NCBI GenBank assembly: GCA_035292445.1
Contig: DATDQB010000010.1
Span: 3,563 to 67,562, forward strand
Origin: Candidatus Omnitrophota bacterium
GTDB taxonomy: Bacteria; Omnitrophota; Gorgyraeia; Zapsychrales; Zapsychraceae
Direction of reading: 5' to 3'
DNA: 64,000 nucleotides
This document shows, piece by piece, positions 1,186 through 50,551 of this stretch. Both the position numbers and the translations under genes were made by a program. How positions within the stretch are numbered: the stretch's first letter is position 1; each line of letters begins with the position of its first letter. Under the pieces are notes generated by a model. The model was not told where the DNA came from. It saw only the letters and a list, made by a program, of their open reading frames with translations, and ran no database searches.

Positions 1186-2214
1186 TCACTCAACTGGAAC
1201 CTGCTGCCACAGCTCAAATACGCGTGAACAGGGTGCGTACCATTTGGAGATCTTAGCGAAATCGCCGCGTAAATGCATTTTCTTTTGTGTGGTAGCCACA
1301 AACGGGTCTATTTCCCGATTAAACACCGCCCGCCACACCTTCTCCGGGGCGGTGATCAAAAACTCCGCGTTCTCATCAGAGCCGACTTTTTCGATTCTAC
1401 CTTTTCGAAACGCGAAGCTGTACGTTTTTCCGGTTTCATTCAGCTTGACCGCCAAGTCCATGGTCATGTTCGTCTTCTCACCCAGCTCTTTCATCTGCTT
1501 ATCTTTATTGACCAGATCAACAATGCTGGCGATCTGTTCTTTTGAGAATAATTTAAATTTCTTTTTATTATTCTGTACGGGCACAGCGCGCTGTGCCCCT
1601 ATCTTGCCCTTTGTACGGGCGACCCGGTGGGTCGCCCCTACGGAATACAACCGGCTGATCGCATCCGTTTTAATGGCGTCTTCAAGCGCCTGGATCAAAA
1701 GAAAACAATCAAAAAGCTCATTGCCCATCGCCACAACGCCATGATTGCGTAAAACAACGATGTTGTTCTTTTTTAAAGCTTCAATGATGGGCACGACATC
1801 GGTCACCGCCGGGGTGGTCTGTTTGACGGATGGCACATCCCCTAAATAAAATCTGGCCTCGAAAATCTTTGGGATCAACTTCTCATTTTCCAGGAAATAA
1901 GCGTTAGTGTATGTTGTATGCGTATGAATAATGGCCCGCGCGTCGGGAAAATTCTTATAAATTTCCGTATGAAGAAGTTTTTCGGAAGAGACAGCCCCTT
2001 CTTCTAACAGCGTTCCATCCAACTTCATGGCCAATACGCCTTTTTCCTGCAAAAGCCCCAAACAAGTTTTGTGGCCCGTAATGACGATCGTGTCCTTATC
2101 AACGCGCGCGCTGATATTACCGTTAAGCCCGCTCACGAGCTCCTTATCCCACATCAGCCCGCCGATGGCGATGATGTTCCGTTTAGCGTTATTTATTTTC
2201 TCTTCGTTATTCAT
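1186..2214 (-). CDS. Class II aldolase/adducin-domain protein with C-terminal SCP2-like domain; candidate methylthioribulose-1-P aldolase/dehydratase (MtnB/Ald2-like)
   Basis: HTHT..Y zinc-site region and overall class II aldolase fold motifs; C-terminal F..T.QKKMHLRGDFAKISKW resembles SCP2 (F.QGKLKI.GD pattern); start taken at MNNEEK to avoid the upstream overlap; adjacent to mtnA. Confidence 0.7.
   Translation of the reverse strand: MNNEEKINNAKRNIIAIGGLMWDKELVSGLNGNISARVDKDTIVITGHKTCLGLLQEKGVLAMKLDGTLLEEGAVSSEKLLHTEIYKNFPDARAIIHTHTTYTNAYFLENEKLIPKIFEARFYLGDVPSVKQTTPAVTDVVPIIEALKKNNIVVLRNHGVVAMGNELFDCFLLIQALEDAIKTDAISRLYSVGATHRVARTKGKIGAQRAVPVQNNKKKFKLFSKEQIASIVDLVNKDKQMKELGEKTNMTMDLAVKLNETGKTYSFAFRKGRIEKVGSDENAEFLITAPEKVWRAVFNREIDPFVATTQKKMHLRGDFAKISKWYAPCSRVFELWQQVPVE
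1575..1645. repeat. Two tandem GTAGGG-family-like hairpins inserted in frame in the class II aldolase gene (between aldolase and SCP2-like domains)
   Basis: gtacGGGCACAGCGCGCTGTGCCCctatcttgccctttgtacGGGCGACCCgGTGGGTCGCCCctacgg; translated VGATHRVARTKGKIGAQRAVPV. Confidence 0.7.
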
Positions 2215-2689
2215 AGCGTTTACTGATATATTTCTGGGGAACCCATTCAACGAGCGGTACATAAGCCTTGATGCCGCTGGGGGCGACGCGTTGCCCTCGA
2301 AAATAAAATAGGTCGTCCGGTTTGCCCATAAATTTTGTTTTCTCGCTGGATTTAAAAATATTCACAGGAATTTTATGGCGCTTGGCCAAAACGCCCAAGA
2401 TAAGGCTTCCGATGCGGCACACGGCCCCTTTTTCATCAGCGATCTGATACGACAGCCACACTTCCTTGACCATATCTTTGGCGAATAAAAATCCGGCCAT
2501 GTTATCCGATATAAGGACCGGTTTGATGCCGCGCTTTAAAAGCTCTTGGGAGCTGTCCTCGGCGGCCTTCAAGCTCGGGCGCCCCTCGAGAACAAACGCC
2601 TCTTTGACGCCTTGTTTCTTCAGCCGGTCAAAGGCTTTCTCATCAAAGATCCCCTGCAAAACTATTTTTTTGCCATTATTAGCGGACAT
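2207..2689 (-). CDS. Short eIF-2B alpha/beta/delta-like protein (aligns to C-terminal half of MtnA)
   Basis: 160 aa; GRPSLKA...GIKPVLISDNMAGFLFA...KRHKIPVNIF aligns with TRPYLQG...GANVTLVADNAIGLLMA...EFDIPFYVL of the adjacent mtnA; may be a truncated duplicate. Confidence 0.45.
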   Translation of the reverse strand: MSANNGKKIVLQGIFDEKAFDRLKKQGVKEAFVLEGRPSLKAAEDSSQELLKRGIKPVLISDNMAGFLFAKDMVKEVWLSYQIADEKGAVCRIGSLILGVLAKRHKIPVNIFKSSEKTKFMGKPDDLFYFRGQRVAPSGIKAYVPLVEWVPQKYISKRYE

Positions 2690-3719
2690 CGATCGGTAGT
2701 GACCTCGTTATATATTCGTGCGGGACCACATCAAAACCCGGATAAAAGCCATGAACGGCTCCGCGCACAATCCTTTTTTTGGAAAACGTTAAAAGTTCCT
2801 CGCTGTCTCTGATCTCTATGGGGATATCTTTGCCTGTTTTCACTTTATTTGACGGCTGCGTTAACACGTAGAACGGTATGTCAAATTCCTGGGCCAACAC
2901 GGCGATCTGGTACGTGCCGATCTTATTGGCGAAATCGCCGTTAGCGCAAGAGCGGTCGGAACCGACGATCACTTTATCGACCAACCCGTCCGCCATCAGT
3001 AACCCGATGGCGTTATCAGCGACCAATGTTACATTAGCGCCCATGCGGTTCAATTCCCACGCCGTCAGTTTGGCCCCCTGCAAGTAAGGTCGTGTTTCGG
3101 TCGCAAAGAAATGGATCTTCTTACCATCCTGCTTACAGATCCACGCGGCCATGGCCAGCTCACCGCTGACGTTACAATGCGTCAGGATACTGTCGCCGTT
3201 CTCGATCGTGGCAGCGATCTTTCGCACCCGCTCAAGCCGGCGCATGCGGATCCCCATTAAATAACCTTGAATATTCTTGGACACGAACTCTCGCAGATCA
3301 ATTCCCTCAGCCACCGCCTGCTTTGCCCATCCGACAACCATCCCCGTCACTTCGCTGAAAGGAAACGTCGGGCGGCTGTTATTTAACATATCGGCGGTTT
3401 TTTCTAACCGTTTCAATACCGCCGTAGGGGCGAGTCGCCGACTCGCCCCTACGTTATTTAATTCCAACAAAAACGCGTTTAAAACAACCAAAAACTGCCC
3501 GAACGCCCGAGTCTTCATGTCCTTAATGACCTTCACTGCTTCCTTCACCGAAGTGACAGGAATATAATGAAGCTTCTTGGGGATAAGCGTTTCATCAAGG
3601 ACATATAACGTATTCTTCTTTAGATACGCCGGCCAGAACAATGGCGATTCTTTGATTTCTTTGTGGTCAAGTTGTATGTTCTGCTTGATCATTTTATTTT
3701 CTAGCCAATTGCTCGGCAC
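2679..3719 (-). CDS. mtnA: S-methyl-5-thioribose-1-phosphate isomerase (eIF-2B family)
   Basis: TETRPYLQGAKLTAWEL, VIVGSDRSCANGDFANKIGTY, IPFYVL motifs of MtnA/eIF2B family; carries an in-frame palindromic element (VGASRRLAPT). Confidence 0.8.
   Translation of the reverse strand: MPSNWLENKMIKQNIQLDHKEIKESPLFWPAYLKKNTLYVLDETLIPKKLHYIPVTSVKEAVKVIKDMKTRAFGQFLVVLNAFLLELNNVGASRRLAPTAVLKRLEKTADMLNNSRPTFPFSEVTGMVVGWAKQAVAEGIDLREFVSKNIQGYLMGIRMRRLERVRKIAATIENGDSILTHCNVSGELAMAAWICKQDGKKIHFFATETRPYLQGAKLTAWELNRMGANVTLVADNAIGLLMADGLVDKVIVGSDRSCANGDFANKIGTYQIAVLAQEFDIPFYVLTQPSNKVKTGKDIPIEIRDSEELLTFSKKRIVRGAVHGFYPGFDVVPHEYITRSLPIDVR
3424..3452. repeat. GTAGGG-family 29-nt palindrome inserted in frame in mtnA
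   Basis: GTAGGGGCGAGTCGccGACTCGCCCCTAC; translated VGASRRLAPT. Confidence 0.8.
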
Positions 3720-4485: not shown

Positions 4486-4562
4486 TTTAAGAATCCTTTC
4501 TTTAGCTATCAGTCGTCAGCTTTCAGTCTTCAGCTGAAGACTGTCGACTGATGACTGACGAC

Positions 4563-6050
4563 TTAAGTTAACGCTTCCTGTTTCAACAAACCCTTATCAA
4601 CTTTCCCTGTTCTATTTTTCGGCAAATCAAGCCGCAACTCAATTGTGTGCGGCACTTTAAAATTGGCCAAATGCTGCCGCGCGAAATAACGGATCTCCTC
4701 CGGGCTTACATTCATCCCTTCTTTCAAAACCACGTACGCTTTGACAGCTTCCCCCTTCATCCGGTCGGGGACGCCGACGACCGCGCACTCGGCCACGGCT
4801 TCGTGCTTGTAAAGGGCCGCTTCCACCTCCGGCGCGTACACGATCTGCCCGCCGACTTTGATCATCTCTTTCTTGCGCCCAACGATATAAAGAAAACCTT
4901 TTTCATCGAAGCGTCCCAGATCACCCGTATATAAACCGTCTCTTTTCTTGACCTCCGCTGTCGCCTCCGGGTCCTTATAATAACCGTCCATCACGATCCA
5001 CCCGCTGATGACGATCTCGCCGACTTGACCGAGCGTGACCTCCTGCCCATCATCATCAACGATTTTTATCTTGCAATTGGGCGCGGGCTTGCCGACGCTT
5101 GTGATATTATCGCTGTCCAACGGTGTCACCGTATTGGGAGGGCAAGTTTCCGTCATGCCCCAGCCGTTCAAAAGCCGCGCGTTCGGGCAATATTTATGGA
5201 AACGCGCCATGATCTCAGGAGAGCTCGGCGCGCCGAAAACAACGACCCAACGCAGTGAGGATAAATTAAACCGTTCTATTTCTTTTAATGTCAACAGGGC
5301 ATTGTACATGGGAGGGACAATATGAAAACACGTCACGTGATGCTGCTGCACCAGCGAAAGGAATTCGAAAGGATTGAACCGGTCCATCAAAATAAGCGTG
5401 ATACCGAATTGAATGCAGTTTTGGATATAAATAAACCCGCCGATATGGCTCAAGGGAATGGCGCAAATCTTAATGTCTTTATTGCTTAGATCGACGAAAT
5501 GATCCATCGCGGCAGGCGAGCCTTCCAAATGTTTATAATTAAGCAATATGCCTTTCGGTCTTCCCGTGGTGCCGGATGTGTACATAATAAGGGAAGGGTC
5601 GCTGTCTTTAATATCGGCCTGAGGAACATCGCTTTGCGCTTGAGCGATCAATCCTTCGATATCCGCACATAAAATAACCGTCTCCAGGCTGGGAAGGTTT
5701 TGCTTGATCTTCTCCAGTTCCACCTCATTCCTGGGCATGGCGATCAACACTTTAGCCTCACAATGCTCCAAACAGCTGGTCAATTCATCCTCTTTAAGCA
5801 TGAAGTCCAAGGGGACAGCCACACCGCCCAAATAAAGGCAAGCTAAATAGCTGTAAACATATTCCGGGCAATTGGGCAGGTAAATGGCGATCTTATCGGC
5901 TTTAGACACACCTCTTTCGCTTAAAGCGTTAGCCAGTTTCAATGACCGCTCTTTTAGCTGTTGGAACGTAACCTCTTTGCCTTTAAAGACTAAAGCCATT
6001 TTATCAGCAAAGCGGGTTACCGATTTCTCTAAAAATTCCTTTATAAACAT
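4563..6050 (-). CDS. AMP-dependent acyl-CoA synthetase/ligase
   Basis: YTSGTTGRPKG AMP-binding motif, 495 aa, typical ANL superfamily layout. Confidence 0.85.
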   Translation of the reverse strand: MFIKEFLEKSVTRFADKMALVFKGKEVTFQQLKERSLKLANALSERGVSKADKIAIYLPNCPEYVYSYLACLYLGGVAVPLDFMLKEDELTSCLEHCEAKVLIAMPRNEVELEKIKQNLPSLETVILCADIEGLIAQAQSDVPQADIKDSDPSLIMYTSGTTGRPKGILLNYKHLEGSPAAMDHFVDLSNKDIKICAIPLSHIGGFIYIQNCIQFGITLILMDRFNPFEFLSLVQQHHVTCFHIVPPMYNALLTLKEIERFNLSSLRWVVVFGAPSSPEIMARFHKYCPNARLLNGWGMTETCPPNTVTPLDSDNITSVGKPAPNCKIKIVDDDGQEVTLGQVGEIVISGWIVMDGYYKDPEATAEVKKRDGLYTGDLGRFDEKGFLYIVGRKKEMIKVGGQIVYAPEVEAALYKHEAVAECAVVGVPDRMKGEAVKAYVVLKEGMNVSPEEIRYFARQHLANFKVPHTIELRLDLPKNRTGKVDKGLLKQEALT

Positions 6051-6062
6051 AGAAAATCCTTT

Positions 6063-6084
6063 AACTAGTAAAATTTTACTAGTT
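6063..6084. promoter_or_regulatory. Perfect 22-bp palindrome AACTAGTAAAATTTTACTAGTT upstream of the acyl-CoA synthetase start and downstream of the PadR gene; candidate operator
   Basis: Perfect inverted repeat in an AT-rich intergenic region between 6050 and 6163. Confidence 0.35.
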
Positions 6085-6162
6085 AGATTTTAGTAGAATC
6101 TAACCCATTGTCAATAAATTTCTTATATATATTAAAAATATTACTTATAGGGGAAATTTGGG

Positions 6163-6678
6163 CTAGGTGAGGACTTCGGCCAGCTTGGTTATGGACTTAA
6201 TTTCAGCTTCAACCAAATCAAGGTCATGATCCAGGATAATTTGCAGGTGTTTTTGGGTGGTTTTGATGTTCCCTTTTAGGGAGGTAAGCTCTCTTTTGAT
6301 CCTGTTGAGAAAAATAAGCCGGCCCCGCAACTGGCGCTGGGCGATCTTTTTGTCAACATATTGAAGGAAATATAAAGAAAGGTCGATGTTAAAATACGGC
6401 CGCTCAATGGAAAGGAAGCTTTCGGTGATCAGATGGTCGAAGATCTTTTCACCCTTTTGCGTCAAGCTGTAAACGTACTTTTCCGGCCATTTTCCCTCTC
6501 GGCCGACATCTTTCTTAATAAGCCCCAGCTTTTCCATTGTCTTTAAAGGATAATAAATGGATTTGATCTTCAAGCCCACAAAAGGGAAAAGCTCTTCCTC
6601 GATCAGGCGTTTGATCTCATAGCCGTGTTTGGGGCCTTCTTTAAGCAATCCTAGAAATAAAAGTTCGTGTTCGATCAT
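6163..6678 (-). CDS. PadR family transcriptional regulator
   Basis: LLFLGLLKEGPKHGYEIKRLIEE winged-helix N-terminus typical of PadR; 4-nt overlap with upstream pyk. Confidence 0.7.
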   Translation of the reverse strand: MIEHELLFLGLLKEGPKHGYEIKRLIEEELFPFVGLKIKSIYYPLKTMEKLGLIKKDVGREGKWPEKYVYSLTQKGEKIFDHLITESFLSIERPYFNIDLSLYFLQYVDKKIAQRQLRGRLIFLNRIKRELTSLKGNIKTTQKHLQIILDHDLDLVEAEIKSITKLAEVLT

Positions 6679-7697: not shown

Positions 7698-7712
7698 AAT
7701 AATAAAAATAAT

Positions 7713-7768
7713 GTAAGGGCAACCTTTACGGTTGCCCGATATTGGGCAGGCGCAAGGCCTGCCCCTAC
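7713..7768. repeat. GTAGGG-family double-hairpin palindromic element (copy 1 of a 3-copy 56-nt subtype); its CCCCTAC end supplies the TAG stop of the lipoprotein gene
   Basis: gtaagGGCAACCtttacGGTTGCCCgatattGGGCAGGcgcaaggCCTGCCCctac; near-identical copies at 45004..45059 and 50496..50551. Confidence 0.8.
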
Positions 7769-8232
7769 TCCGCTACTTGAAATTTTGTTCCCAATTCTTC
7801 AAAGACAATTCTTGCGACCGTCCGCTTAGCCGTCGATGCTAAGGAAGAAACGTCCACCCGGATCGTTTCCAGGCTGGTGCGGGTGAAGAAAATGCCGACC
7901 TCTGTCGTATTCACGCTTCCTTCAACGCCCATGACGATAATGTAGGGAGGGCTCGCGTATAGATCCGACATAAATATGTCAAAGACCCCCTCATCTATTT
8001 CAGGAGGCTTCACCCAAGGTTTAGCCGATGGCTTATAGCGGCCTAAGCGCATTATGGCCTCGAAGCAATCCTCGTAACTGCAATGGAATGCCTTGCTGAT
8101 GCCGTCTTGGCTGGCCTTATCTTGCAATGTTTGGGTTGAGGTGCCAACGATTCTTTTGGCCGCCTCTTTAACAGAGCAACCTTGAAGGGGCATCATCAAG
8201 GCAATAATAATAAAAAGATATCGTAAATTCAT
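7765..8232 (-). CDS. Hypothetical lipoprotein
   Basis: Signal peptide with lipobox (LQGC); no recognised domain. Confidence 0.5.
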   Translation of the reverse strand: MNLRYLFIIIALMMPLQGCSVKEAAKRIVGTSTQTLQDKASQDGISKAFHCSYEDCFEAIMRLGRYKPSAKPWVKPPEIDEGVFDIFMSDLYASPPYIIVMGVEGSVNTTEVGIFFTRTSLETIRVDVSSLASTAKRTVARIVFEELGTKFQVAE

Positions 8233-9461: not shown

Positions 9462-9463
9462 AA

Positions 9464-10426: not shown

Positions 10427-10439
10427 AAAAAACTCCCTG

Positions 10440-14200: not shown

Positions 14201-15318
14201 TCAACCCTAGCCGCGAATTCCGGGGCATCGACAACCAGCATGGCCTCATCCACTGCCATTTTCGCCCCACCGGAAAAATACTTTCGTGGAATGACTTCCT
14301 GGGTGGCGGGATCATACTCTTCTTTGATGTAATTGTAGACCCCGACCTTAAAGGCCTCTAAATACTGCTCGTAGATCTTTTGTTTCACTTGTTTGTCTTC
14401 GACGTCCACGCCCTCTGTTTTATTTTGATCCACGTAAATTCTGTTGAGCAAATGCCCCTCAAGTTTTCTCTTGAACCACGTGGCTAAGATCAATGAATTG
14501 TAGATCTGGCGCAAATTGGCGAAATTCTTGCCTTCGTTGACTTCCTTCTCGATCTCAGGAAGAATCACCTCCCTCATCATTTCAGTCATCAGTCGTCGGT
14601 CTTCAGTCGTCAGACCTTCCTCTGACGTCTGATGACTGATGTCTGATGACTGACTAAGCGCCAAATAGTCTTCTTCCAACATCACCTTCAAATGCGACTC
14701 CACCACAAAGGCCGTATCGCCGTTCTCATAGACAACCGCTTTTTCAGGAACGATCCACACTTTATTGAACGTGTTGACCGGAATATCGCTGGTGCCGTAC
14801 AATTCATAAGCCCTCTGATGGATCCTATCCCAGAACTTCTTGCCCAATTCTTCCTCAGGATAGATCAGGCTTGCCGTTAATTGTTTAAGCAAATAATCCT
14901 GCGCCAAAAGGTCGCGCCCCATTTCCGTTATACCGAAACCCTCCGGCACAATGCGGTCCTTTTCATACGGCGAGAGATTGACCCACAAGTCTTCTTTGGG
15001 CACGGTCAAACTGGCCAGAAAATATTTGACCAATTTGTCGGCTTCAAGGCGCAAGGCCTCGTCTTTGAGGTTGCTTTCGCCTGTATCGATAATGAAATCA
15101 AAACGAAGCGGATTATCGGCGTAAATTTTAATGCCTTTCATCAAAGGCGGCGTGAAGGCGACGCTTGGCGGGAGCAACGTTCCCGGGGAGACAAGCGGTA
15201 AGGCCGCTTGCGCCCACACGAGTGAAGGAAGATAGACCGTTGAAACAAAAAAGACAACGGCAATCGTGGCGCAAATAAACTTAAATAATTGTGATTTTCT
15301 TAGAATATGTATACACAT
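11218..15318 (-). CDS. Giant modular protein (1366 aa): signal/TM, conserved N-cap, unknown module, PP2C-like phosphatase, GHKL (HATPase_c) module, conserved C-cap; paralog of the 4345-aa protein
   Basis: N-terminal hydrophobic segment; PP2C motif ALADGVGDHKYSGVASRLA...SVSDGIYE; HATPase_c motif IQVIDNGTGISPEILERLGKE...GRSGLDVIS; N-cap and C-cap about 60-70% identical to the 50935..63972 protein; five D-x-A-M-[VLIM] junction motifs. Confidence 0.8.
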   Translation of the reverse strand: MCIHILRKSQLFKFICATIAVVFFVSTVYLPSLVWAQAALPLVSPGTLLPPSVAFTPPLMKGIKIYADNPLRFDFIIDTGESNLKDEALRLEADKLVKYFLASLTVPKEDLWVNLSPYEKDRIVPEGFGITEMGRDLLAQDYLLKQLTASLIYPEEELGKKFWDRIHQRAYELYGTSDIPVNTFNKVWIVPEKAVVYENGDTAFVVESHLKVMLEEDYLALSQSSDISHQTSEEGLTTEDRRLMTEMMREVILPEIEKEVNEGKNFANLRQIYNSLILATWFKRKLEGHLLNRIYVDQNKTEGVDVEDKQVKQKIYEQYLEAFKVGVYNYIKEEYDPATQEVIPRKYFSGGAKMAVDEAMLVVDAPEFAARVEQNFNHAIIASAVLDAKGRDGESVTDVTRLLGPSLTDNAMLSEEMAGLIETAPQVRALQGRWGFTDTDKEQIMAWGDTGKEDRLPTPALIHKIFFHITKLYTSGKKRYAQAWINALSHKWQITSDIIFNVMQWLNKEGINLSAVSDAVFADFIDTTIDTYQRYSNLREKYVYFLPPGIDDNQKLILPTSNMKRMTGMFSPEFINGQAILKATIPGTSYFIAMKYGLAENTHGIYLVIGEEGDSVDPMKGVFARIGLDTQEDTIRVNLVHGVSGKQKLINEIFPQDLGLHPIVALLYIAAELAHQGHYRFENGGLEGKIEPFTSLMGIRPDFIPTMRNGEPTINVLANYERFGLRRSAEFGRWQYVDHIIRNTIPERIEMRLRPNATMAQRRRSVSIEKMIDAFNRMEQVPISSPIDGDLDRAMIADEHVRTGMVSDTLRARPNKDYTDVNRVKRAVALADGVGDHKYSGVASRLAVEVSLDQLKVDILAQVRTRGELKPIWEDLVQKIQAAYAEYKMVNSLTDQKEDKLETTLSLFHIREETVSGKRQVIFFNKGDSRIYAWSKRKRQLIQLTQDDTFAQEFIRTGSMTEEQAIGHMYSAILSDGIGLERGHELQDWQYGIVDIELDDIVFSVSDGIYENFTKSKKEFEDSVAQFADQFEDMNDFSRAIRNQAAAHAKDKQRENRFRKIDDMSVAAMKIAAQADTAMVGEETVQFYQFKVSDNYDLREQALVALRQAGKKLTLKLEESGQFKRYPTDHSQWTNRGYLDARMDDLYRNAIDAIFAQHGSNARQLGQITIQAAVRDQQILIQVIDNGTGISPEILERLGKEQVVTPKIPSEDTPFWGRSGLDVISLSWAFQDVGWTLKFENRRDNHGAIVSIIIPNSPADNKPDRAMMGAKEKDKVGGIDLNPDMLDIEERGRAIEFNLPEELKKLETMPINGFAPIIYQIIPVTNLPLLLGITDQEEPEPLAEHSASSLELSKAYERKEPIGIRE

Positions 15319-16942: not shown

Positions 16943-18420
16943 GGGCTGTGAGTCATTGAAGGTTGAATTAATCGTTCAAAAATAACCCGGCCGTTGACCA
17001 AAGCCGGGTCCTTGCTTTGCGCCGCCTCAAGCCTGGAAACAAAATCTTCCAAAAAAGAAATACCGGTTATTTCCCTGGCCAACTCGATGGCACGCGCTGC
17101 GTAGCGCAAGATCTGAATGGTCTCTATCCTAGAAACATCTTCGAAAAACCATCCGCAACTGGTGAACATAAACATGGCGAATTTCTGCATTTCTAATAAT
17201 TTCAAGATTTTTGTTTTGTCTTGTAGGGGCAGGGCATGCCCTGCCCCTACGATATCTCGAATAAATTTATCCACATTGTTATCAGAAAGGTTCAACAATA
17301 ACGTGATATATTCATCTCGTGCCTTCCACGGATCATCACAAAATTGACACATTTGAGTTTCATAAACGTCTATTAATTGATCCCTCAACCAATTCAGCGA
17401 TTCCCGAAGCGTGCCGCGCCATTTATGCACCTTGCGCGTGTGCGTATCATAACTATGGCGGTCGTCCTTGCTCCAGCGATTTAATCCCGAGTCGCAGCTC
17501 CACGCGGTATTTTCAATGATTTCGACTTCAAAGGTTGGCGGGTGGCGTTCTAAAAATGAGCCGTAATTAATTAACTGCGCTTCATCGCTTTGGTCAAAAT
17601 GATCGAAAACCTTTTTAAGGACCAGCTGCCCTCTTTTATGGTGATGCCCGTAGGTTTCCCCATCCACCGCGCAATGAATGACCGTAGGCTCATCAAAGGG
17701 GCGCTCGATTTCCCGCTGGATGCCGTGAATAAAACGAGTGGCGCTGTTGATATAGCCTCCGAAGGCAACATGGGTGGCCATGGAGCCGTCATAAAAAAAC
17801 AAAGCGATGCTTTTACCGGAGGGCAACGGACATTTATAAACCCTTTTCGTTTCAACGCTGGCGTATTGGCCGACCTCTTCCCACACCCTCTGTCCCTGTT
17901 TTCGTATTTTTGCCGCCTGCGCAGGGGCAAGGACTGTAAATAGAATGCCGTGCTGGACCAATACCTCAAGGGTCGCCACATCCACCGCCGTTTCGGGAAG
18001 CCACATCCCTTCGGGCTTGCGCTTGAACCGATGCTCGAAATCCTTGATCCCCCAGATCACCTGCGTATGTTTATCCCGTTCATTGGCCAGGGGCATAATC
18101 ATGTGGTTGTAGCCCTGCGCCAAGGCCGAGCCGTGGCCCTGGAATCGGATTCGGCTTATTTGGTCCGCCTGAAGAATGGCCTCGTAGGAATATGCGCCCT
18201 TTTCCTTAAGCCACGTCAAAAGGGTCGGCCCAAAATTAAAACTCATCCGTTCGTAGTTCTTGAGCTTGGCGTTGGATTCATAGCATTCGGCATTGATGCG
18301 CTCATTCCAGTCGTGGTAGGGATGGGCGGTTTCCTGGACGTCAACCTGGCTGGTCCAAGGATTCTCTCGGGGAGGCTGATAAAAATGCCCGTGCAGGCAA
18401 ATATATTTTTCCATTTTCAA
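16939..18420 (-). CDS. Glycoside hydrolase family 57 protein (probable 1,4-alpha-glucan branching enzyme)
   Basis: HGHFYQPPRE signature of GH57; size about 490 aa; co-located with malQ; contains an in-frame 28-nt palindrome (VGAGHALPL). Confidence 0.8.
   Translation of the reverse strand: MKMEKYICLHGHFYQPPRENPWTSQVDVQETAHPYHDWNERINAECYESNAKLKNYERMSFNFGPTLLTWLKEKGAYSYEAILQADQISRIRFQGHGSALAQGYNHMIMPLANERDKHTQVIWGIKDFEHRFKRKPEGMWLPETAVDVATLEVLVQHGILFTVLAPAQAAKIRKQGQRVWEEVGQYASVETKRVYKCPLPSGKSIALFFYDGSMATHVAFGGYINSATRFIHGIQREIERPFDEPTVIHCAVDGETYGHHHKRGQLVLKKVFDHFDQSDEAQLINYGSFLERHPPTFEVEIIENTAWSCDSGLNRWSKDDRHSYDTHTRKVHKWRGTLRESLNWLRDQLIDVYETQMCQFCDDPWKARDEYITLLLNLSDNNVDKFIRDIVGAGHALPLQDKTKILKLLEMQKFAMFMFTSCGWFFEDVSRIETIQILRYAARAIELAREITGISFLEDFVSRLEAAQSKDPALVNGRVIFERLIQPSMTHSP
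17223..17250. repeat. GTAGGG-family perfect 28-nt palindrome inserted in frame inside the GH57 gene
   Basis: GTAGGGGCAGGGCATGCCCTGCCCCTAC; translated as VGAGHALPL in the minus-strand frame. Confidence 0.8.
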
Positions 18421-42200: not shown

Positions 42201-42205
42201 TGAAT

Positions 42206-42580: not shown

Positions 42581-42669
42581 GCAAGAATATCAATGGCTGA
42601 TGGCTATACCTTTTAAACCTTCTCGGTCTGCTATTATTTTTATAGCATAATTTCGGAAGATGGAAAATC

Positions 42670-42840: not shown

Positions 42841-42933
42841 GTGTTTCCTCCTACGGTTGATTGTTAAATATTGTCCTTGAGTTTAACTGAATAAATTTAA
42901 GTTGTCAAACCAAAAAAGCTGAAACTGATTCAT

Positions 42934-44208
42934 TTAATTGCGAATCCCAAATAACGAATGAATTTCTTTTTCCTGATCGTTCGTCAGCGGGCCGATCAAG
43001 GCCAGGTTAAAACGCTTGGGATCGAGGATATGCTTGGCAACGCGCCGCACATCCGATGGCGTTATCTTCTTGAGTTCATTGACGACCTCATGCCTCGTAT
43101 GTAGGCGGTTGCGGCTCATGAGGCTTTCCCCCATCCAGATCATATGTTCCATTGTGTCTTCTAAACCTAACAGGATTTGGCCTATGACATATTCCCTGGC
43201 CCTTTTAAATTCTTCCTGCCCGACATTCGCCGCCTTGATCCTCTCCAGCTCCTTCAATATCAGCCCCAGCGCTTGCGTGAGCCTTTGATTATCAACGCCC
43301 GCCTTGATGAGAAAAATGCCGGTATCGGCCAGCGGTTTATTGTAACTGGAGATCGAATACGCGAGCCCATGCTTTTCCCGCACCTCGACGAACAGGCGGC
43401 TGCTCATGTTCCCGCCTAAAATGACGCTTAACAGGCTTAAAACGTAGCGCTCCTTCTGAAATTGGTTGTAGCCCAGCATCCCCAATGCCAAATGCATCTG
43501 CTCGATATCTTTTTTGTGCAGATTTAACCGGGGGGCGCTCTGGGCATTGACCGCTTTGATAAATCCTTTACCCGCGGAACCGGCCGCGCGACCCAGTTTT
43601 CTTTTGGCCGCCTGAACAAGCTTGGTGTGGGAGATCTTGCCACAGGCCACGATTGCCGCGTTACCGGCGCCGTAATACGTCTTATGGAAATCCGAAAGGT
43701 TCTCTTTGGTCGTTGAGCCGACGCTTTCGACCGTCCCGGCCAAGCTTTTGCCCAACGGATGGTTCGGCCAAACCAATCCATCCAGCAGTTCCATCACATG
43801 GTATTGAGGGATATCATGGTACATCTTGATCTCTTCCATGATGACGGTCTTCTCTTTATTGAGTTCCTCGGTTTTCATATTAGGGAAAAACGCCATGTCG
43901 GCCAAGACATCAAAAGTCTGATCGAAATGTTTGGCCGGGATCTTGGCATGATAGCACGTTTGCTCCTCAGCGGTAAACGCGTTCAGTGAGCCACCGACCC
44001 CTTCGATCAATTGCTTGATCTCCTCGCAGGCATACTTTTGGCTTCCTTTAAAGACCATGTGTTCCAAAAAATGCGCGGCGCCCTTGATGTGGTCCTCTTC
44101 GTAACGGCCGCCGGCATTGAACCAGAAGCCTAAGGCGACACTATCGCGATCTTTCATTTCGTGGGAAACGATTCTTAAGCCATTGGGGAGAATTTCTTTT
44201 TTATACAT
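42934..44208 (-). CDS. M16 family zinc peptidase (insulinase-like)
   Basis: HFLEHMVFKGS inverted zinc-binding motif. Confidence 0.85.
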   Translation of the reverse strand: MYKKEILPNGLRIVSHEMKDRDSVALGFWFNAGGRYEEDHIKGAAHFLEHMVFKGSQKYACEEIKQLIEGVGGSLNAFTAEEQTCYHAKIPAKHFDQTFDVLADMAFFPNMKTEELNKEKTVIMEEIKMYHDIPQYHVMELLDGLVWPNHPLGKSLAGTVESVGSTTKENLSDFHKTYYGAGNAAIVACGKISHTKLVQAAKRKLGRAAGSAGKGFIKAVNAQSAPRLNLHKKDIEQMHLALGMLGYNQFQKERYVLSLLSVILGGNMSSRLFVEVREKHGLAYSISSYNKPLADTGIFLIKAGVDNQRLTQALGLILKELERIKAANVGQEEFKRAREYVIGQILLGLEDTMEHMIWMGESLMSRNRLHTRHEVVNELKKITPSDVRRVAKHILDPKRFNLALIGPLTNDQEKEIHSLFGIRN

Positions 44209-44993
44209 TAACGAAGGCCTTTCATAAGCTGATCGACAAATGCAGAAACTTTTTTAACCGACCCACGGGTTTTATAGATCTGATTGACGATGGCACTGCC
44301 GATTATAACGCCGTCAGCGATTTTGGCGACAGCGCGCACCTGCTCTTTGGTCGAAACGCCAAACCCCACACAGACTGGTTTAGCCGTTAAGCGCTTGGCC
44401 AAACGTACTTGGCTTTTAATGGTTTCGGGAAGCTTGCTGCGCGCTCCGGTGACGCCGGTCAAAGAAACGTAGTAAATGAACCCGGTTGACGCCTTGGCGA
44501 TGAGCTGCATGCGTTTCTTGGTAGTTGTCGGTGCAATAAAAAATACCGTTGCCAGATCATTCTTTCTAGCTGCTTGAGTTAGTTTATGGCTTTCTTCGGG
44601 GGGCAGATCGGGAATGATGACGCCATCCACGCCGCTTGATCTTGCCTTCTTTATGAACTGCTCTTCGCCACGATGGAAAACAGGATTGAAATACGTCATG
44701 AGCGCGATCGGCATATTGCTCTTTTGCCGGATACGGGAAACGAGCTGAAAGATCTTATCTAACGTAACGCCTTTGCCTAACGCCCGTTGCGAGGATGCCT
44801 GAATGGTCGGCCCGTCCGCCAACGGATCGGAAAATGGCACGCCCAGCTCAACAATATCCACGCCGATTCTTTCGAAGGCAATGACCAATGCTTCGGTAGC
44901 TTTAAGGGACGGATCGCCTGCGGTGATGAAAGCGATGAAGGCTTTTTCCCGTCGTTTTCTTAATTCATTAAATTTTTTGGTAATACGATTCAT
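44208..44993 (-). CDS. trpA: Tryptophan synthase alpha chain
   Basis: ELGVPFSDPLADGPTIQ motif, 261 aa. Confidence 0.9.
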   Translation of the reverse strand: MNRITKKFNELRKRREKAFIAFITAGDPSLKATEALVIAFERIGVDIVELGVPFSDPLADGPTIQASSQRALGKGVTLDKIFQLVSRIRQKSNMPIALMTYFNPVFHRGEEQFIKKARSSGVDGVIIPDLPPEESHKLTQAARKNDLATVFFIAPTTTKKRMQLIAKASTGFIYYVSLTGVTGARSKLPETIKSQVRLAKRLTAKPVCVGFGVSTKEQVRAVAKIADGVIIGSAIVNQIYKTRGSVKKVSAFVDQLMKGLR

Positions 44994-45003
44994 AATTAAT
45001 CCT

Positions 45004-45059
45004 GCAGGGGCAACCTTTATGGTTGCCCGTTATCGGGCAGACGCAAGGCCTGCCCCTAC
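45004..45059. repeat. GTAGGG-family double-hairpin element (copy 2 of the 56-nt subtype); supplies the TAG stop of trpB
   Basis: gcaGGGGCAACCtttatGGTTGCCCgttatcGGGCAGacgcaaggCCTGCCCctac. Confidence 0.8.
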
Positions 45060-46237
45060 ATCAAATCCTTTATCGAATTCATATCCTTGTCACCTCTACC
45101 GGACAAACAAACAATGACCGTTTTCTTTCCTTTTACCTTCCTCGCCAACTTTTCTAAATACGCGATCGCATGGGCCGTTTCCAACGCCGGGATGATCCCT
45201 TCCGTCCTCGATAACAGCTTAAGTCCTTCAATAGCTTCTTTATCATTAATTGAAACGTATTGCGCCCGTTTAATTTTCTTATAGTACGAATGCTCCGGCC
45301 CGACACCGGGATAATCCAGCCCGGCCGCGATCGAATGCGCTACTTTGATCTGGCCGTCGCGCGTTTGTAACAGATCTGATTTGCTCCCATGAAGGACGCC
45401 GATCTCCCCCATCGCCAACGGCGCCGAGTGATGGCCTGATTGCAATCCCAGCCCGGCCGCCTCAACTCCGATCATTTTTACTCTCTTGTCATTGAAGAAA
45501 GTATGGAACAGCCCCATCGCGTTACTGCCGCCGCCGACACAGGCCAGCAGATAATCCGGCAATTTCTTTTCTTTGGCCAAAAATTGCTTTCGGGCTTCAC
45601 GGCCGATGACCGATTGGAATTCGCGCACCATCAAAGGATACGGATGCGGGCCGGCCACGGAGCCGATAATATAAAATGTGTTCTGAACATTGGTGACCCA
45701 ATCGCGAATGGCTTCATTCATCGCGTCTTTAAGTGTCTGCGATCCCGAAGTGACGGTAATGACCTTGGCTCCCAGAAGCTTCATCCGGTCCACATTAAGC
45801 GCTTGGCGCTTGGTGTCCTGCGCTCCCATGTAGATCTCGCATTGCAACCCCATAAGCGCAGCTGCGGTTGCGGTCGCCACACCGTGCTGGCCGGCGCCGG
45901 TTTCGGCGATGATACGGGTCTTGCCCATGCGCTTGGCGATCAATACCTGGCCTAAGGTGTTATTGATCTTGTGCGCACCCGTATGGAGTAGGTCCTCGCG
46001 TTTTAAATACACTTTAAGCCTTCCCACATGCTCGCTTAGACGTTTCGCGTAATACAAACTCGTGGGCCGGCCGGCGTATTCCTTCAGATAATAATCCAAC
46101 TCCCGATGGAATTTTCTGTCCTTCCTGAGGGCAGAAAACGTCCTTTGCAGTTCGTCCAGAAGCGCCATCAGCGTCTCAGGGACGAACCGCCCGCCGAAGG
46201 GACCGAAATGGCCATTTTTATCGGGTAATTTATTCAT
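45056..46237 (-). CDS. trpB: Tryptophan synthase beta chain
   Basis: [20 protein letters not shown]-enzyme motifs of TrpB. Confidence 0.95.
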
Positions 46238-46305
46238 ATCACTTCCTAAAATTGAATTCCTATTGGAACATAAAATTATGGGTATGTCAATCTTTCATAC
46301 CCATC

Positions 46306-46334
46306 GTAGGGACAGTACATTGTGCTGTCCCTAC
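46306..46334. repeat. GTAGGG-family 29-nt palindrome; supplies the TAG stop of the M48 peptidase gene
   Basis: GTAGGGACAGtacattgtgCTGTCCCTAC. Confidence 0.8.
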
Positions 46335-48010
46335 GCTCGTGTCGTGGCTTCCTCTATCAAATACTGGAGCACTTCCAGTTCATCATGGTCAAACCAGATG
46401 GAACCGCAAGCGAAACATCGGTCCATTTCTACCTTGTAGACCTCGGTATAAAACATCCGATGCATTTTATTGCGGGGATGGTTGCATTTGGGACATGTAA
46501 ATAGCGTCTGCGGGTTCCTTTTGATAGCCGGCGCCATAAACATATCAGCCGTTTTCTTGATCGTTTCGGCAATATGCTTGACCTTCTCGGAGAAACCGAC
46601 ATCCTGTCGGATGATAATACGCTTAACGTCATTCTCATGGACCAGAACGCCGTGACAGAACGGGCATTTTTCAAGCTCTACGCCTTCATAATAGACTTTG
46701 GAAAGCGCCAGATGGCAACGCGGGCACTTTTCCGACGCTTCTTTCATTTCATCGCTGTGGCCGAGGACGCCGGCCAAGGCTTGATCTTCGTACGCCGGTT
46801 TGACTTTATCTTCATCCAAGCGCTTGATCCAGGTTTGCGGCTCGATCCAATCAAAGGTGGCCATCTGGACCAGCTCAAAAGGCCCTTGCCACCGGCCATC
46901 TTTGTGGACCATCCACTTGGTGTCGATGCCGACGGCTTCGGGCACTTGCGTTCTGGGTTTATTCTCTAATTTTTTTACACCCTGCACCAGCTGCTCGACA
47001 TCCGCATGAGCCATTTCCAAAAGAATGCCTAAACGCTTCTCAACCGGTGGATGCGTGGAAAACAGCTCGGCGAAAATGCCTTCATGTTCATCCAAATAGG
47101 CATACTGCGGGTTAACGATAAAAATAGCTTCCATTTCTTGAGCGGTCAATTCTTGCCCGCGCCAATGATAGGCAATGGCGTAAAGCGCTTCCGCCAAACT
47201 TAACGGATCGCGTGTTAAACGGACCGAAATGGCATCCGCCCGGTATTCGCGCTGGCGCGAAATGAACATCCGCACCAAATGGCTTAAAAATTTTGTCAGC
47301 AATAACAAAATATAGATCAATAAAATAACGGCAACGGCCCCTCCTCCGCTACCGCGCCCGCGGGATGAATAAGAACTGCGCCGGCCGCTGCCCCGAAGCA
47401 TCAGTTCGATCCCCTTCAAAAGGCCGCCGTAAAGGGCAAAAATGGAGCTGGTCACGGTCGTCGCCAAACAATCGCGCGAGACGATATGGGCCACTTCATG
47501 GCCCACGATCGCTTCGATCTGAGCGCGGGATAATCGGGCCAAAACACCTTCGGTGGTCCCGAGCACATGATGTCCCTCAAAATCGGAAAGCGCAAAGGCG
47601 TTCATGGCCATCGTTGGAATGATTACCCCTTCGATCTTTACCCCGCCCGTGGCCACAGAAACTTCATCCAAAATGTTACGGAACATCTGATGATACGTGT
47701 CCTTTTCATTAAGTTTCTCCGCCCCCAGAACGCCGAGCATTTTTTTGATCAAATTGCTGGTGGTGTAGCTCCAATGGCCGTAGCCAACGACACAAGCGAT
47801 GGCTAAAATGATAAGGGTCGTTGGAAAATCCAGGAAGAAGAACACAAAGGACTGCTGCTCATAAGTGGGGATCTCACTGTAGGCGATGGCATTGGCCACA
47901 ACCATCGCAATGCCCCAAAAGGCGAGAAAATAAAAAAGAATTAAAAAGGAAAAGACAAAACCGATGGTACGGGTTTTGTCTTCCTCGATTTGGGTGAACG
48001 AATACGGCAT
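46331..48010 (-). CDS. M48 family membrane metallopeptidase (HtpX-like) with C-terminal tandem zinc-ribbon domains
   Basis: N-terminal TM helices; HEVAHIVSRD HExxH; C-terminal CPRC...CPFC and CPKC...CFAC motifs. Confidence 0.75.
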   Translation of the reverse strand: MPYSFTQIEEDKTRTIGFVFSFLILFYFLAFWGIAMVVANAIAYSEIPTYEQQSFVFFFLDFPTTLIILAIACVVGYGHWSYTTSNLIKKMLGVLGAEKLNEKDTYHQMFRNILDEVSVATGGVKIEGVIIPTMAMNAFALSDFEGHHVLGTTEGVLARLSRAQIEAIVGHEVAHIVSRDCLATTVTSSIFALYGGLLKGIELMLRGSGRRSSYSSRGRGSGGGAVAVILLIYILLLLTKFLSHLVRMFISRQREYRADAISVRLTRDPLSLAEALYAIAYHWRGQELTAQEMEAIFIVNPQYAYLDEHEGIFAELFSTHPPVEKRLGILLEMAHADVEQLVQGVKKLENKPRTQVPEAVGIDTKWMVHKDGRWQGPFELVQMATFDWIEPQTWIKRLDEDKVKPAYEDQALAGVLGHSDEMKEASEKCPRCHLALSKVYYEGVELEKCPFCHGVLVHENDVKRIIIRQDVGFSEKVKHIAETIKKTADMFMAPAIKRNPQTLFTCPKCNHPRNKMHRMFYTEVYKVEMDRCFACGSIWFDHDELEVLQYLIEEATTRA

Positions 48011-48019
48011 CTTTTGAAT

Positions 48020-48048
48020 GTAGGGAACGGTTTCAAACCGTTCCCTAC
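48020..48048. repeat. GTAGGG-family 29-nt palindrome between the lemA stop and the M48 peptidase start
   Basis: GTAGGGAACGGTTTcAAACCGTTCCCTAC. Confidence 0.8.
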
Positions 48049-48053
48049 ATTAT

Positions 48054-48605
48054 TTAGAATTTGACCTTCGGCGTTTCTTTTTGGGCCGCGTCTTCGATCT
48101 CAAAGAAGTCGTTTTTCTTGAAATTAAAACTGCCGGCAATCACGTTCGCGGGAAAAGACTGGACGGCTGTGTTGAGCCGGTTGACCTCATCGTTGTAATA
48201 TTGCCGGGCGAAGGTAATCTTATTTTCGGTCGTAGTCAATTCTTCGTGAAGCTGCATCATCTGCCGGTCGGCCTTGAGATTGGGATATTGCTCCGAAACA
48301 GCAAAAAGGCTACGCAAGGTGCTCGTCAAAAGGTTTTCGGCCTGCTGGCGGTCTTTGAGGTCGCTCGCATTAATGGCCTGTTGGCGCGCCTTAATGACCT
48401 TTTCCAACGTGTCTTTCTCATGGGCCATATAGCCTTTGGCCGTTTCCACTAAATTGGGGATCAGGTCGTGGCGGCGTTTGAGCTGCACATCGATCTGCGA
48501 CCAGCCGTTTTTCACGTTCTCGCGCAATTGCACGAGCCGGTTGTAAACGCCGATGGCCCATATCATGGCAACAACTATCAAACCTAATAAGATCCAGAGA
48601 ATCAT
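48054..48605 (-). CDS. lemA: LemA family protein
   Basis: N-terminal TM plus NRLVQLRENVKNGWSQIDVQLKRRHDLIPNLVE LemA signature. Confidence 0.85.
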   Translation of the reverse strand: MILWILLGLIVVAMIWAIGVYNRLVQLRENVKNGWSQIDVQLKRRHDLIPNLVETAKGYMAHEKDTLEKVIKARQQAINASDLKDRQQAENLLTSTLRSLFAVSEQYPNLKADRQMMQLHEELTTTENKITFARQYYNDEVNRLNTAVQSFPANVIAGSFNFKKNDFFEIEDAAQKETPKVKF

Positions 48606-48663
48606 GCCTCTCCTCCCACGTTAAAGGTTAAAATTCAAAACCAGTATAGCACATCCTGAAAAC

Positions 48664-49344
48664 TTAAGGGGCATAACTTTCCATGACCAAAGACGTCTTG
48701 CCGAAACCGACCGAGCCCTTGATGCGCAAAGGGATCCTGCGTTCAGTTGTATCGAACCAAATCTGATAATCTTTGTCGTTGCCTTCCAAGTAATACGTTT
48801 CATGTTCCTGGCCAACCGCCTCTATTTTTTCCCGACCGGCAAACCCGATCATGACATCTTTTGTCGGCAAGGTCATCTCAAGCTTCTCTCCGGGTTTAAA
48901 CTGCCCGGAAACCCTGTAACGGTATATGAACGCGTAAATATTATCCAGCCTCTGAGGCTTTTTGATCTCGAAGGCCTCCCGCTTTCCCTTGGCGACTTTT
49001 ATGATACGCACGTACCCGTCTTCCCTGTAACGTTCGGTAATGCTCTCCTTTTTTCCCCACATGTCGATGTCGCGCTCGATAATGGCCGGATAGAACGATT
49101 GCGGGTCCAGATAGATCTTCTCGGTATCGCGCATGCGAAGCGCAGCCGTATCGACCGTGACCAGGATATAATCCCGGCCTTCCAGCGGTGTTATGCCGTG
49201 ATAGCGGACAATGACTTTCCCGACCGTTAAGTTGGCTTTCTTGATCTGGTAGGTGATGGTCTCACCGGGGACGAAGACGGCGGCAAAAGAGCTGGAAGAC
49301 AGCAAAACGATCAACGCTAAGAAAGATATTCGGCTTCGTATCAT
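48664..49344 (-). CDS. Secreted hypothetical protein (possibly DUF3108-like)
   Basis: Signal peptide; beta-rich; no firm family. Confidence 0.45.
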   Translation of the reverse strand: MIRSRISFLALIVLLSSSSFAAVFVPGETITYQIKKANLTVGKVIVRYHGITPLEGRDYILVTVDTAALRMRDTEKIYLDPQSFYPAIIERDIDMWGKKESITERYREDGYVRIIKVAKGKREAFEIKKPQRLDNIYAFIYRYRVSGQFKPGEKLEMTLPTKDVMIGFAGREKIEAVGQEHETYYLEGNDKDYQIWFDTTERRIPLRIKGSVGFGKTSLVMESYAP

Positions 49345-50483
49345 CTTCGATCATACGCCTTGATGTACTCTTCCAGCAGCCTTGTGCCCTTGCACATGTC
49401 CTTGACGTAAATATATTCATCGGTCGTGTGCGCGGTGCCCTCGGCCGCCCAGCCGGTGGCGAAGGCGGGGATGTTGTGGTGCTGGAAAAAGGTGACGACG
49501 GTCGCGCCCTCGCTGCCTTTGAGATGCGCGGGACATTTCATCTTCTTGGCGGTCTTTAAAAATAAGCTGACCGCCCGGTGCTTAGGATCAAGCTGGTAAG
49601 GCAACTGGTGGTCATCGATGATGATCTTGTATTCTTTGGTGACGCTTTCAATGATCTTTTTGTAAAGCTTTATGATACCGGCAAACTTCATATCCGGCGT
49701 ATAACGCGTATCGACCGAAAATTCGCAAAAATCCGCCACCATGTTGACCTTGTCCCCGCCATGGATGGTGCCGATATTGATGGTCGGGCCTCTTAACAGC
49801 GGATGTTTCTTATATTTGAATTTTATTTGCTTCAATTGATTGATGATCTGGCTGGCCTGCTCGATGGCGTTGACGCCCTGCCAGTTGTACGCGCCGTGGG
49901 CTTTCTTGCCGAAAATCTGGATGCGGATATGAAGCAACCCTTTTTGCGCCACAATAGCATCATATTCGGCCGAATCCATCACAACACAGACCTGAGGCTT
50001 CAACACTCTCTTCTCTAATAAAGGGATGATGCCGTAATCGCTCCCGGTTTCCTCATCGACCGTGGCCGCCATGATGATATCATGCCTTGGCTTAAAGCCG
50101 TCTTCGACCATGCTGTGCATGATTTCAAGACAGCTGGCGGTGTTGCCTTTGTCATCGGAGGCCCCGCGGCCGTAGAGTTTCCCTTTAACGATTTTTCCGC
50201 CGAAGGGATCATATTTCCATCCTTTGCCGATGGGGACGATATCAAAATGCGGGGTAATGCACATAGCTCCCTGTGACGCTTGCTTGCGCGGCAAACTCCC
50301 TCTTAACGTGGCGATGACATTCGGCCGCCTTTTGGCGTACGTGTAGGTCTTGACATCAAGCCCGAGGGAGCGCATGTACTTCTCGATCCACTTGGCGCAA
50401 TCCCATTCAAGGCCCGGAGGGTTGGTCGTGTTGTAGGAGATTAATTTTTGTAATGTTTTAATTAAACGTTCGTTATTTATCAT
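49341..50483 (-). CDS. M20 family metallopeptidase (ArgE/DapE-like deacylase)
   Basis: ITPHFDIVPIG, GRGASDDKG motifs; start set at MINNERL because the longer ORF-track N-terminus is a translation of the palindromic element. Confidence 0.8.
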   Translation of the reverse strand: MINNERLIKTLQKLISYNTTNPPGLEWDCAKWIEKYMRSLGLDVKTYTYAKRRPNVIATLRGSLPRKQASQGAMCITPHFDIVPIGKGWKYDPFGGKIVKGKLYGRGASDDKGNTASCLEIMHSMVEDGFKPRHDIIMAATVDEETGSDYGIIPLLEKRVLKPQVCVVMDSAEYDAIVAQKGLLHIRIQIFGKKAHGAYNWQGVNAIEQASQIINQLKQIKFKYKKHPLLRGPTINIGTIHGGDKVNMVADFCEFSVDTRYTPDMKFAGIIKLYKKIIESVTKEYKIIIDDHQLPYQLDPKHRAVSLFLKTAKKMKCPAHLKGSEGATVVTFFQHHNIPAFATGWAAEGTAHTTDEYIYVKDMCKGTRLLEEYIKAYDRR

Positions 50484-50495
50484 TTGTTTATAAAC

Positions 50496-50551
50496 GTAGG
50501 GGCAACCTTTACGGTTGCCCATCCTCGGGCAGGCACAAGGCCTGCCCCTAC
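50496..50551. repeat. GTAGGG-family double-hairpin element (copy 3 of the 56-nt subtype)
   Basis: gtagGGGCAACCtttacGGTTGCCCatcctcGGGCAGGcacaaggCCTGCCCctac. Confidence 0.8.

Follow-up and report, generated by a model that had tools for sequence, protein, structure and literature searches.

The DNA analysed here raises the question of what the short palindromes are that recur along it, between genes as well as in frame inside genes for enzymes. The window, i.e. the whole stretch of 64,000 nt under study, belongs to a Candidatus Omnitrophota bacterium (GCA_035292445.1, contig DATDQB010000010.1, positions 3,563-67,562); all its long open reading frames (ORFs) are situated on the minus strand and its GC skew is negative throughout. 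An initial annotation had listed eight loci with hairpins ending in GTAGGG and CCCTAC and had placed them beside the Rickettsia palindromic elements (RPEs). The present study indicates that these structures, also written as GTAGGGGC-type hairpins, are most probably GTAG-tagged repetitive extragenic palindromes (REPs) of the type linked to subclass 2.4 of the REP-associated tyrosine transposases (RAYT/TnpA_REP), presumably mobilised by a RayT enzyme. The window elements match this published kind in every structural feature tested.

The DNA examined from the same genome amounts to about 71 kb, namely the window and 6.7 kb of its left flank (L206). For comparison, 84 further Omnitrophota loci around MtnA were used (1.29 Mb in total; 85 sequences together with the window), all of them picked around one operon. 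Moreover, metagenome contigs were scanned with the pattern GTAGGGGCG-N8-14-CGCCCCTAC; the matches listed span 0.69 Mb and were chosen by the palindrome only. The literature on Omnitrophota palindromes and on the string GTAGGGGCG yielded nothing relevant, only primers. Presence/absence polymorphism of the elements was sought in other samples; three further samples are 100% identical in sequence and therefore give no presence/absence information.

Anatomy and abundance of the elements

Hairpins of the form GTAG-GGG...CCC-CTAC occupy nine loci in the 64-kb window, comprising 12 hairpins, and one locus in the 6.7-kb flank. All eight loci of the initial annotation are present where it had placed them. 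The nine window loci are:

1575..1602, minus strand: degenerate REP hairpin, minus strand ATAGGGGCACAGCGCGCTGTGCCCGTAC, in frame in the aldolase-SCP2 inter-domain linker, reads IGAQRAVPV
1613..1641, minus strand: one-footed REP, minus strand GTAGGGGCGACCCACCGGGTCGCCCGTAC, in frame in the same aldolase-SCP2 linker, reads VGATHRVART
3424..3452, unstranded: perfect 29-nt double-foot REP inside mtnA, GTA-GGG phase, reads VGASRRLAPT
7713..7768, minus strand: head-to-head REP dimer of two 8-bp hairpins, intergenic, minus-strand GTAG intact, plus-strand foot degenerate (GTAA)
17223..17250, unstranded: perfect 28-nt double-foot REP inside the GH57/DUF3536 gene, reads VGAGHALPL
45004..45059, minus strand: head-to-head REP dimer between the trpB-like gene (45056-46237) and trpA (44208-44993)
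46306..46334, unstranded: 29-nt double-foot REP with one mismatch, intergenic, at the M48 peptidase gene 46331-48010
48020..48048, unstranded: perfect 29-nt double-foot REP between the LemA and M48 peptidase genes, the palindrome extending over 48017-48051
50496..50551, minus strand: head-to-head REP dimer flanked by ORF 50555-50860 and by the M20 peptidase gene, whose start is probably at ~50483

Two forms can be distinguished, single palindromes of 28-29 nt and head-to-head dimers of 56 nt. The singles at 3424-3452, 17223-17250, 46306-46334 and 48020-48048 are four double-foot singletons, which are joined by the decayed or one-footed copies at 1575-1602 and 1613-1641 and by the three dimers. 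In most singletons the palindrome is complete, and its 13-15 pairs take in the tag on both strands. Eight of the nine loci have an intact GTAG on one strand or on both; at 1575-1602 the feet are degenerate, with ATAG on the minus and GTAC on the plus strand. Three G-C pairs (GGG/CCC) form the stem base in every copy. At 1575-1645 the plus strand reads GTACGGG...CCCCTAT and GTACGGG...CCCCTAC instead of showing the listed ends GTAGGG and CCCTAC; here a GTAG foot exists solely on the minus strand, which is the coding one, and the opposite end is CCCGTAC. A third one-footed copy, GTAGGGG...CCCGTAC, is situated at L206 10008-10036 of the same genome, about 2.2 kb past the left edge of the window, and in all three copies of the ...CCCGTAC variant the coding strand carries an intact GTAG. 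The 56-nt units at 7713-7768, 45004-45059 and 50496-50551 had been regarded as near-identical; they are 84-87% identical, and two of them begin with GTAAGG and GCAGGG. The proposed link to the junctions of the giant gene could not be upheld, as that sequence is a lone GTAGGGAC without a partner arm.

When folded as single-stranded DNA, the single hairpins are predicted to be stable, with -10.6 to -15 kcal/mol and z-scores between -5.5 and -7.7. For two of the three 56-mers the prediction gives two separate 8-bp hairpins that leave the outer GTAG and CTAC unpaired, whereas a different minimum-energy fold is predicted for 45004-45059, which has a stem mismatch.

The elements are far more frequent than expected. 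The strict pattern GTAGGG-N10-40-CCCTAC gave 4 matches against 0.05 expected, a number reached in none of 100 shuffles; a relaxed definition gave 6 symmetric copies against 0.2 in triplet shuffles, and 13 hairpins with a GTAG foot were counted against 3.25 in shuffles. The shuffles rule out a chance origin of the palindromes, and the initial view of a repeated palindromic family enriched in the window is thereby confirmed. Miniature inverted-repeat transposable elements, which measure 70-300 bp and show terminal inverted repeats as well as duplications of the target site, were considered and rejected, given element sizes of 28-56 nt. In some copies only, the flanks lengthen the palindrome by 1-3 nt, and no consistent duplication is seen.

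Comparison with REPs and their transposases

According to Quentin et al. (2018; PMC6006769), the long REPs of TnpA_REP subclass 2.4 (Bertels group 4) have a GT[AG]G foot and a stem base of three consecutive G-C pairs, their 'double foot' REPs show 5' GT[AG]G and 3' C[TC]AC, and REPs in frame inside tnpA_REP itself have already been described. The elements studied here share with them the foot at the hairpin base, the three G-C pairs, the double-foot form, the inverted dimers and the occurrence in many phyla. They differ in that the Omnitrophota host is not among the described phyla, no cognate transposase gene is present in the ~71 kb examined, many copies reside in housekeeping enzyme genes, and the same loop is occupied in several species.

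A GTAG-tagged REP superfamily in eight phyla was described by Di Nocera, De Gregorio and Rocco (2013; PMC3733652). Its members occur as singletons and head-to-head dimers, are placed near or overlapping the 3' ends of ORFs, and include intragenic in-frame copies, mostly in Opitutus terrae, encoding peptides such as VGPALAAG and VGAGLPA. Palindromes of 20-40 bp with terminal GTAG, head-to-head dimers, placement at ORF 3' ends and in-frame copies that often read Val-Gly are common to both sets, and the superfamily is known in the Planctomycetes-Verrucomicrobia-Chlamydiae (PVC) superphylum, which holds Opitutus terrae as well as Omnitrophota. In that survey, however, the tag is unpaired at one end and the stems have 6-13 bp, while the 13-15 pairs found here include the tag. 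In-frame intragenic REPs have thus been published before, as has the element type itself (PMC3733652, PMC6006769), and the window provides a new example rather than a new phenomenon.

Further evidence came from the metagenome scan. The contigs among the matches listed range in GC from 0.31 to 0.72, and this spread of 31-72% indicates that many phyla are involved. Approximately three quarters of the matches listed are perfect palindromes, a few cores recur many times, and most of the copies listed are intergenic. In the 0.69 Mb of palindrome-selected loci at least nine RayT-like genes with matching REPs were detected; the searches used sequences of E. coli RayT and IS200 TnpA and then four RayT-like proteins from the loci, and the matches were confined to the metagenome loci. 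Two of the RayT-like proteins were tested against Pfam Y1_Tnp and scored 27.8 and 28.3 bits (cut-off 23), their best NCBIfam match was 'REP-associated tyrosine transposase' (63 and 77 bits, cut-off 80), and both contain the subclass 2.4 motifs NH[IFV]H, WQ and YIxNNP as given in Table 1 of PMC6006769. On L111, each of two adjacent RayT-like genes is accompanied by a matching REP core of its own, both upstream and within the gene. The RayT-like family is very large; JGI labels relatives as 'REP element-mobilizing transposase RayT', and the named relatives belong to Meiothermus, KSB1, cyanobacteria, Chloroflexi, Paceibacterota and Spirochaetota, the latter being the sole name among ten clusters of RayT relatives.

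Some additional observations were made on these loci. The RayT-like genes of L092, L111 (two), L115, L162, L182, L189 and L197 contain a REP of their own, in frame, in the loop that follows the HuH motif, and many RayT relatives show tandem half-REP expansions such as VGAGSVGAGSVGAGSEPAPT. On L145, a contig with 69% GC, five near-identical 29-nt double-foot REPs are spaced by 104-134 nt within 1500-2002, one of them differing in just one base at its centre. The long in-frame ORFs that surround REPs on GC-rich metagenome contigs mostly look like spurious frames, and the Pfam-confirmed REP-bearing metagenome ORFs are restricted to QueA, a periplasmic binding protein and an ABC1 kinase.

Among the Omnitrophota, palindromes of this type exist in 23 of the 85 sequences, the window counted. 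About 31 of 42 copies in these loci are intragenic, a share that is biased because the loci were chosen around one operon. Head-to-head dimers of the window type were also found in L073, L082 (twice) and L084. The core GGGGCGGTTCGCGAACCGCCCC is common to the aldolase gene of L013 and the non-orthologous aldehyde dehydrogenase gene of L014, and L044 contains three identical copies within 2.3 kb. The identical cores in non-orthologous genes and the triplicate in L044 point to copying and not to a local origin.

Some intergenic copies donate stop codons

All five intergenic loci of the window come 0-6 nt after a co-directional gene, and three of them overlap its stop codon. The genes 7765-8232, 45056-46237 (trpB-like) and 46331-48010 have the TAG of a GTAG foot as their stop codon; at 7713-7768, for example, the CTA at 7765-7767 represents the TAG stop of gene 7765-8232. 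This donation of stop codons was absent from the initial account of the locus. The intergenic element 50496-50551 is located upstream of the probable Met start (~50483) of the M20 peptidase.

No terminator-like call was obtained for any of the four elements in 44000-51000, and no T-run exists in the 10-nt flanks of all nine loci; intrinsic terminators were rejected on these grounds. The covariance models of Rfam 15 gave no match at gathering score anywhere in the window.

In-frame copies overlay variable loops of enzymes

Four hairpins are in frame in three enzyme genes, the Pfam domains of which are intact in all cases, and the three peptides reported for aldolase, MtnA and GH57 were recovered exactly as noted. 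These segments had been regarded as additions of 9-22 residues. Instead, the in-frame copies coincide with variable loops or linkers and change their length by a net 0 to +6 residues, although the element length is not a multiple of three. In the aldolase ORF 1186-2262 two hairpins are placed in the linker between Aldolase_II (residues 29-198) and SCP2 (residues 270-340); this linker is hypervariable in sequence and length across orthologues, and the window copy is within the normal range. The GH57 element is situated in a variable loop of the DUF3536 part with a net gain of +2 residues; the nearest orthologue (64% identical) reads VGAYSSTPLQ at the corresponding place. The MtnA interval between two conserved motifs is 35 residues long in the window as against 32 in the majority of Omnitrophota (net +3), while other palindrome bearers have 32-38, two of them 32 and hence no change; compared with the Pyrococcus structure 6a34 the difference is +1 residue. 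In the AlphaFold model of MtnA the element residues 81-90 run from the last part of helix 63-84 through the turn 85-88 into the first part of helix 89-104, with a predicted local distance difference test (pLDDT) value of 73 at the element site versus about 95 in the blocks on either side. The MtnA proteins of L013 and L021 have the same element, and the four residues directly after it are missing in L021, which suggests trimming after its arrival.

The reading phase of the in-frame copies is nearly constant. GTA-GGG (Val-Gly) is used by 30 of 31 intragenic copies in Omnitrophota, by eight of nine copies in RayT-like genes and by nearly all of 120 RayT relatives, and the alternative open reading phase of the element is not blocked. 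Codon rarity was rejected as the cause of the Val-Gly phase, because AGG is commoner than GTA in the window genome, where GTA is the rarest Val codon (5.1 per 1000).

A recurrent and always paired palindrome in MtnA

The insertions had been expected to be lineage-specific, but the orthologue alignment revealed other REP variants at the identical MtnA and GH57 sites of related Omnitrophota, so the elements are not insertions private to the window genome. The MtnA loop carries a palindrome of 28-31 nt in 14 loci, corresponding to 11 distinct sequences with different inner parts. Among these sequences 96.7% of the cells pair, eight of 11 pairs are changed at both positions while no pair is changed at just one, a result matched by none of 500 shuffles, and all 23 changed cells go from Watson-Crick to Watson-Crick. 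The self-complementary interior had been taken as a sign of selection for the hairpin. It is true that complementarity is kept via compensated changes; however, this covariation is no proof of such selection, since replacement by another family member or arm-to-arm correction would look alike, and the three processes are not separable with these data.

Regarding the same site, the closely related MtnA genes of L007 and L009 were seen to differ sharply across the REP-bearing segment, and the segment of L007 is similar to that of another clade (L008, L011), as though recombination had swapped a patch that contains the REP. A short second IF-2B-family ORF (window 2207-2689, 160 aa) directly follows mtnA with an 11-nt overlap, and this gene pair is kept in L001-L004 and L205-L207.

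Origin of the elements and alternative explanations

The scenario with the strongest support is that of REPs of the subclass 2.4 type. The arm pairs would fold into hairpins on single-stranded DNA, where a RayT-type HUH/Y1 enzyme could recognise the hairpin together with its GTAG foot, cut and rejoin the strand, and thereby generate new copies elsewhere. Selection would then filter these copies. Intergenic ones would persist just downstream of coding regions; a copy with an in-frame TAG inside a gene might survive only near the 3' end, as stop codon; and GTA-GGG copies might survive only in sequence-tolerant loops or linkers, with neighbouring residues being trimmed and the loop length kept. 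We infer a RayT gene in this genome and the mobilisation of the elements by it or by an ancestor's copy. As an analogy only, integron attC sites likewise combine conserved outer ends with a variable, self-complementary interior and are recognised by a recombinase as a folded single strand; they have other end sequences, another size and extrahelical bases, they are served by a tyrosine recombinase of another family, and no cassette context exists here.

Several findings weigh against this assignment. The element has 28-29 nt, yet the net change at coding sites is 0 to +6 residues, for which a simple cut-and-paste insertion is insufficient without extra deletions. Nor does the REP/RayT model predict that nearly all copies are read in the GTA-GGG phase. 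Furthermore, MtnA-loop bearers are found in at least five separate places of a rough neighbour-joining tree calculated with the loop left out, which calls for a hotspot, recombination or many losses. On the side of the enzyme, the NCBIfam scores of both RayT-like proteins are below the curated cut-off, no Omnitrophota appear among the named RayT relatives, and a RayT-like gene was found neither in the window and its 6.7-kb flank nor in the 1.29 Mb of other Omnitrophota loci. Three points are not accounted for by the model: the Val-Gly phase, the recurrence in the MtnA loop with fully compensated arms, and the near-zero net length change.

It might be possible, though it appears rather unlikely, that the intragenic REPs are more than passengers, either because arm-to-arm correction or cassette-like replacement acts on the coding DNA or because the hairpin or the peptide was recruited for a function. 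This idea is based on the recurrence in the same loops across species, the matched arms, the Val-Gly...Pro-Leu/Thr reading and the kept loop length.

Among the explanations that dispense with mobility, hairpins selected as RNA in the transcripts, for instance as stabilisers of 3' ends or as processing or translational pause sites, which would resemble each other via a common RNA-binding factor, were considered and seem improbable. The position of the five intergenic loci directly after the stops of co-directional genes would fit such a role, REPs elsewhere have been reported to stabilise mRNA and their placement suggests transcription (PMC3733652), pairing is largely kept at the MtnA site, and the fixed reading phase could point to translation. 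However, T-runs, terminator-like calls and Rfam matches are missing, and the consistent exchange of one Watson-Crick pair for another in 23 of 23 changed MtnA cells, with no one-sided pair, is unusual for RNA helices. The sole wobble in the window, at 46306, is a T-G on the non-coding strand and would become an A-C mismatch in the mRNA. Moreover, most copies are palindromic through the centre, which is not required of an RNA loop, and the linkage to RayT genes would be unaccounted for.

With slightly less probability still, the coding palindromes could have been made in place, from chance quasi-palindromes next to a GTA-GGG pair that were perfected via template switching during replication. 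An origin of this kind would accommodate the net length change of about zero and the arm changes that are always compensated, and unrelated 24-nt AATT...AATT palindromes with species-specific interiors, described below, exist in an aldehyde dehydrogenase helix without length change. It is difficult to reconcile with an identical 28-nt sequence in non-orthologous genes and in intergenic DNA, with the same foot and stem base in contigs over the whole GC range, with cores matching those paired with RayT genes, and with the rarity of GTA among the Val codons.

Finally, a distinct RPE-like selfish family specialised for in-frame insertion and unrelated to REP/RAYT, the view of the initial annotation, is very improbable, because the four in-frame hairpins of the window and the mainly intragenic copies of the Omnitrophota loci, the sole points in its favour, are set against the locus choice that biases this intragenic share, the mostly intergenic position of the metagenome copies among the matches listed, and a GTAG foot, stem base, dimer form and RayT linkage that are all REP-like. 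The parallel with RPEs stands as far as palindromic repeats residing in frame in probably functional genes are concerned. Membership was rejected on tag and size, since RPE-4 and RPE-6 have been equated with CGTC-tagged REPs and RPE-1 with 'longer palindromic insertions' (PMC3733652), whereas the window elements are GTAG-tagged and 28-56 nt long; RPEs also lack linkage to GTAG-specific RayT genes and add sizeable segments, while the window elements cause nearly no net length change.

Other palindromes and neighbouring features

A different palindrome, TTTAACTAGTAAAATTTTACTAGTTAGA, occupies window 6060-6087, flanked by the PadR gene (6163-6678) on one side and by the AMP-binding gene (4563-6050) on the other. 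Its core AACTAGTAAAATTTTACTAGTT is kept at the syntenic position in about 25 Omnitrophota loci, and it probably represents the PadR operator.

Palindromes of 24 nt with the structure AATT-N16-AATT were observed inside the aldehyde dehydrogenase genes of eight Omnitrophota loci:

L003, 12849-12872: AATT palindrome
L005, 12622-12645: AATT palindrome
L010, 12689-12712: AATT palindrome
L013, 12859-12882: AATT palindrome
L014, 12758-12781: AATT palindrome
L021, 13926-13949: AATT palindrome
L023, 14113-14136: AATT palindrome
L025, 6478-6501: AATT palindrome

Seven of the eight were checked and have the identical codon position, in a native helix A-I-x5-[Q/K/E]-F. They lack a GTAG foot, leave the length unaltered and contain species-specific self-complementary interiors. 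The AATT set is absent from the window, where GCGATCGC (~925-955) is found in its place. A second coding palindrome site (ATTG...CAAT) with differing interiors exists in the same aldehyde dehydrogenase genes of L003 (13919-13940) and L018 (14366-14387). As the AATT set suggests, a palindrome-preserving process may be at work in these genomes.

Among the remaining features of the window, a single ORF of at least 4345 codons extends from 50935 to 63972 and onward, perhaps past the end of the window; the assembly collection contains no record of its exact product. Direct repeats of TCAGTCGTCAG-like units are located at 4487-4533 and 14581-14613, about 10 kb apart.

Implications

The present study extends a known repeat class, the GTAG-footed and RayT-linked REPs, to the uncultured phylum Omnitrophota, and no new kind of system is revealed. 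As a rule for genome annotation, short VGA....P(L/T) segments in these genomes derive from REPs, and so do some of the TAG stop codons. Furthermore, the orthologous MtnA loops with their differing but always paired REPs represent a natural data set on the turnover of REPs in coding DNA.

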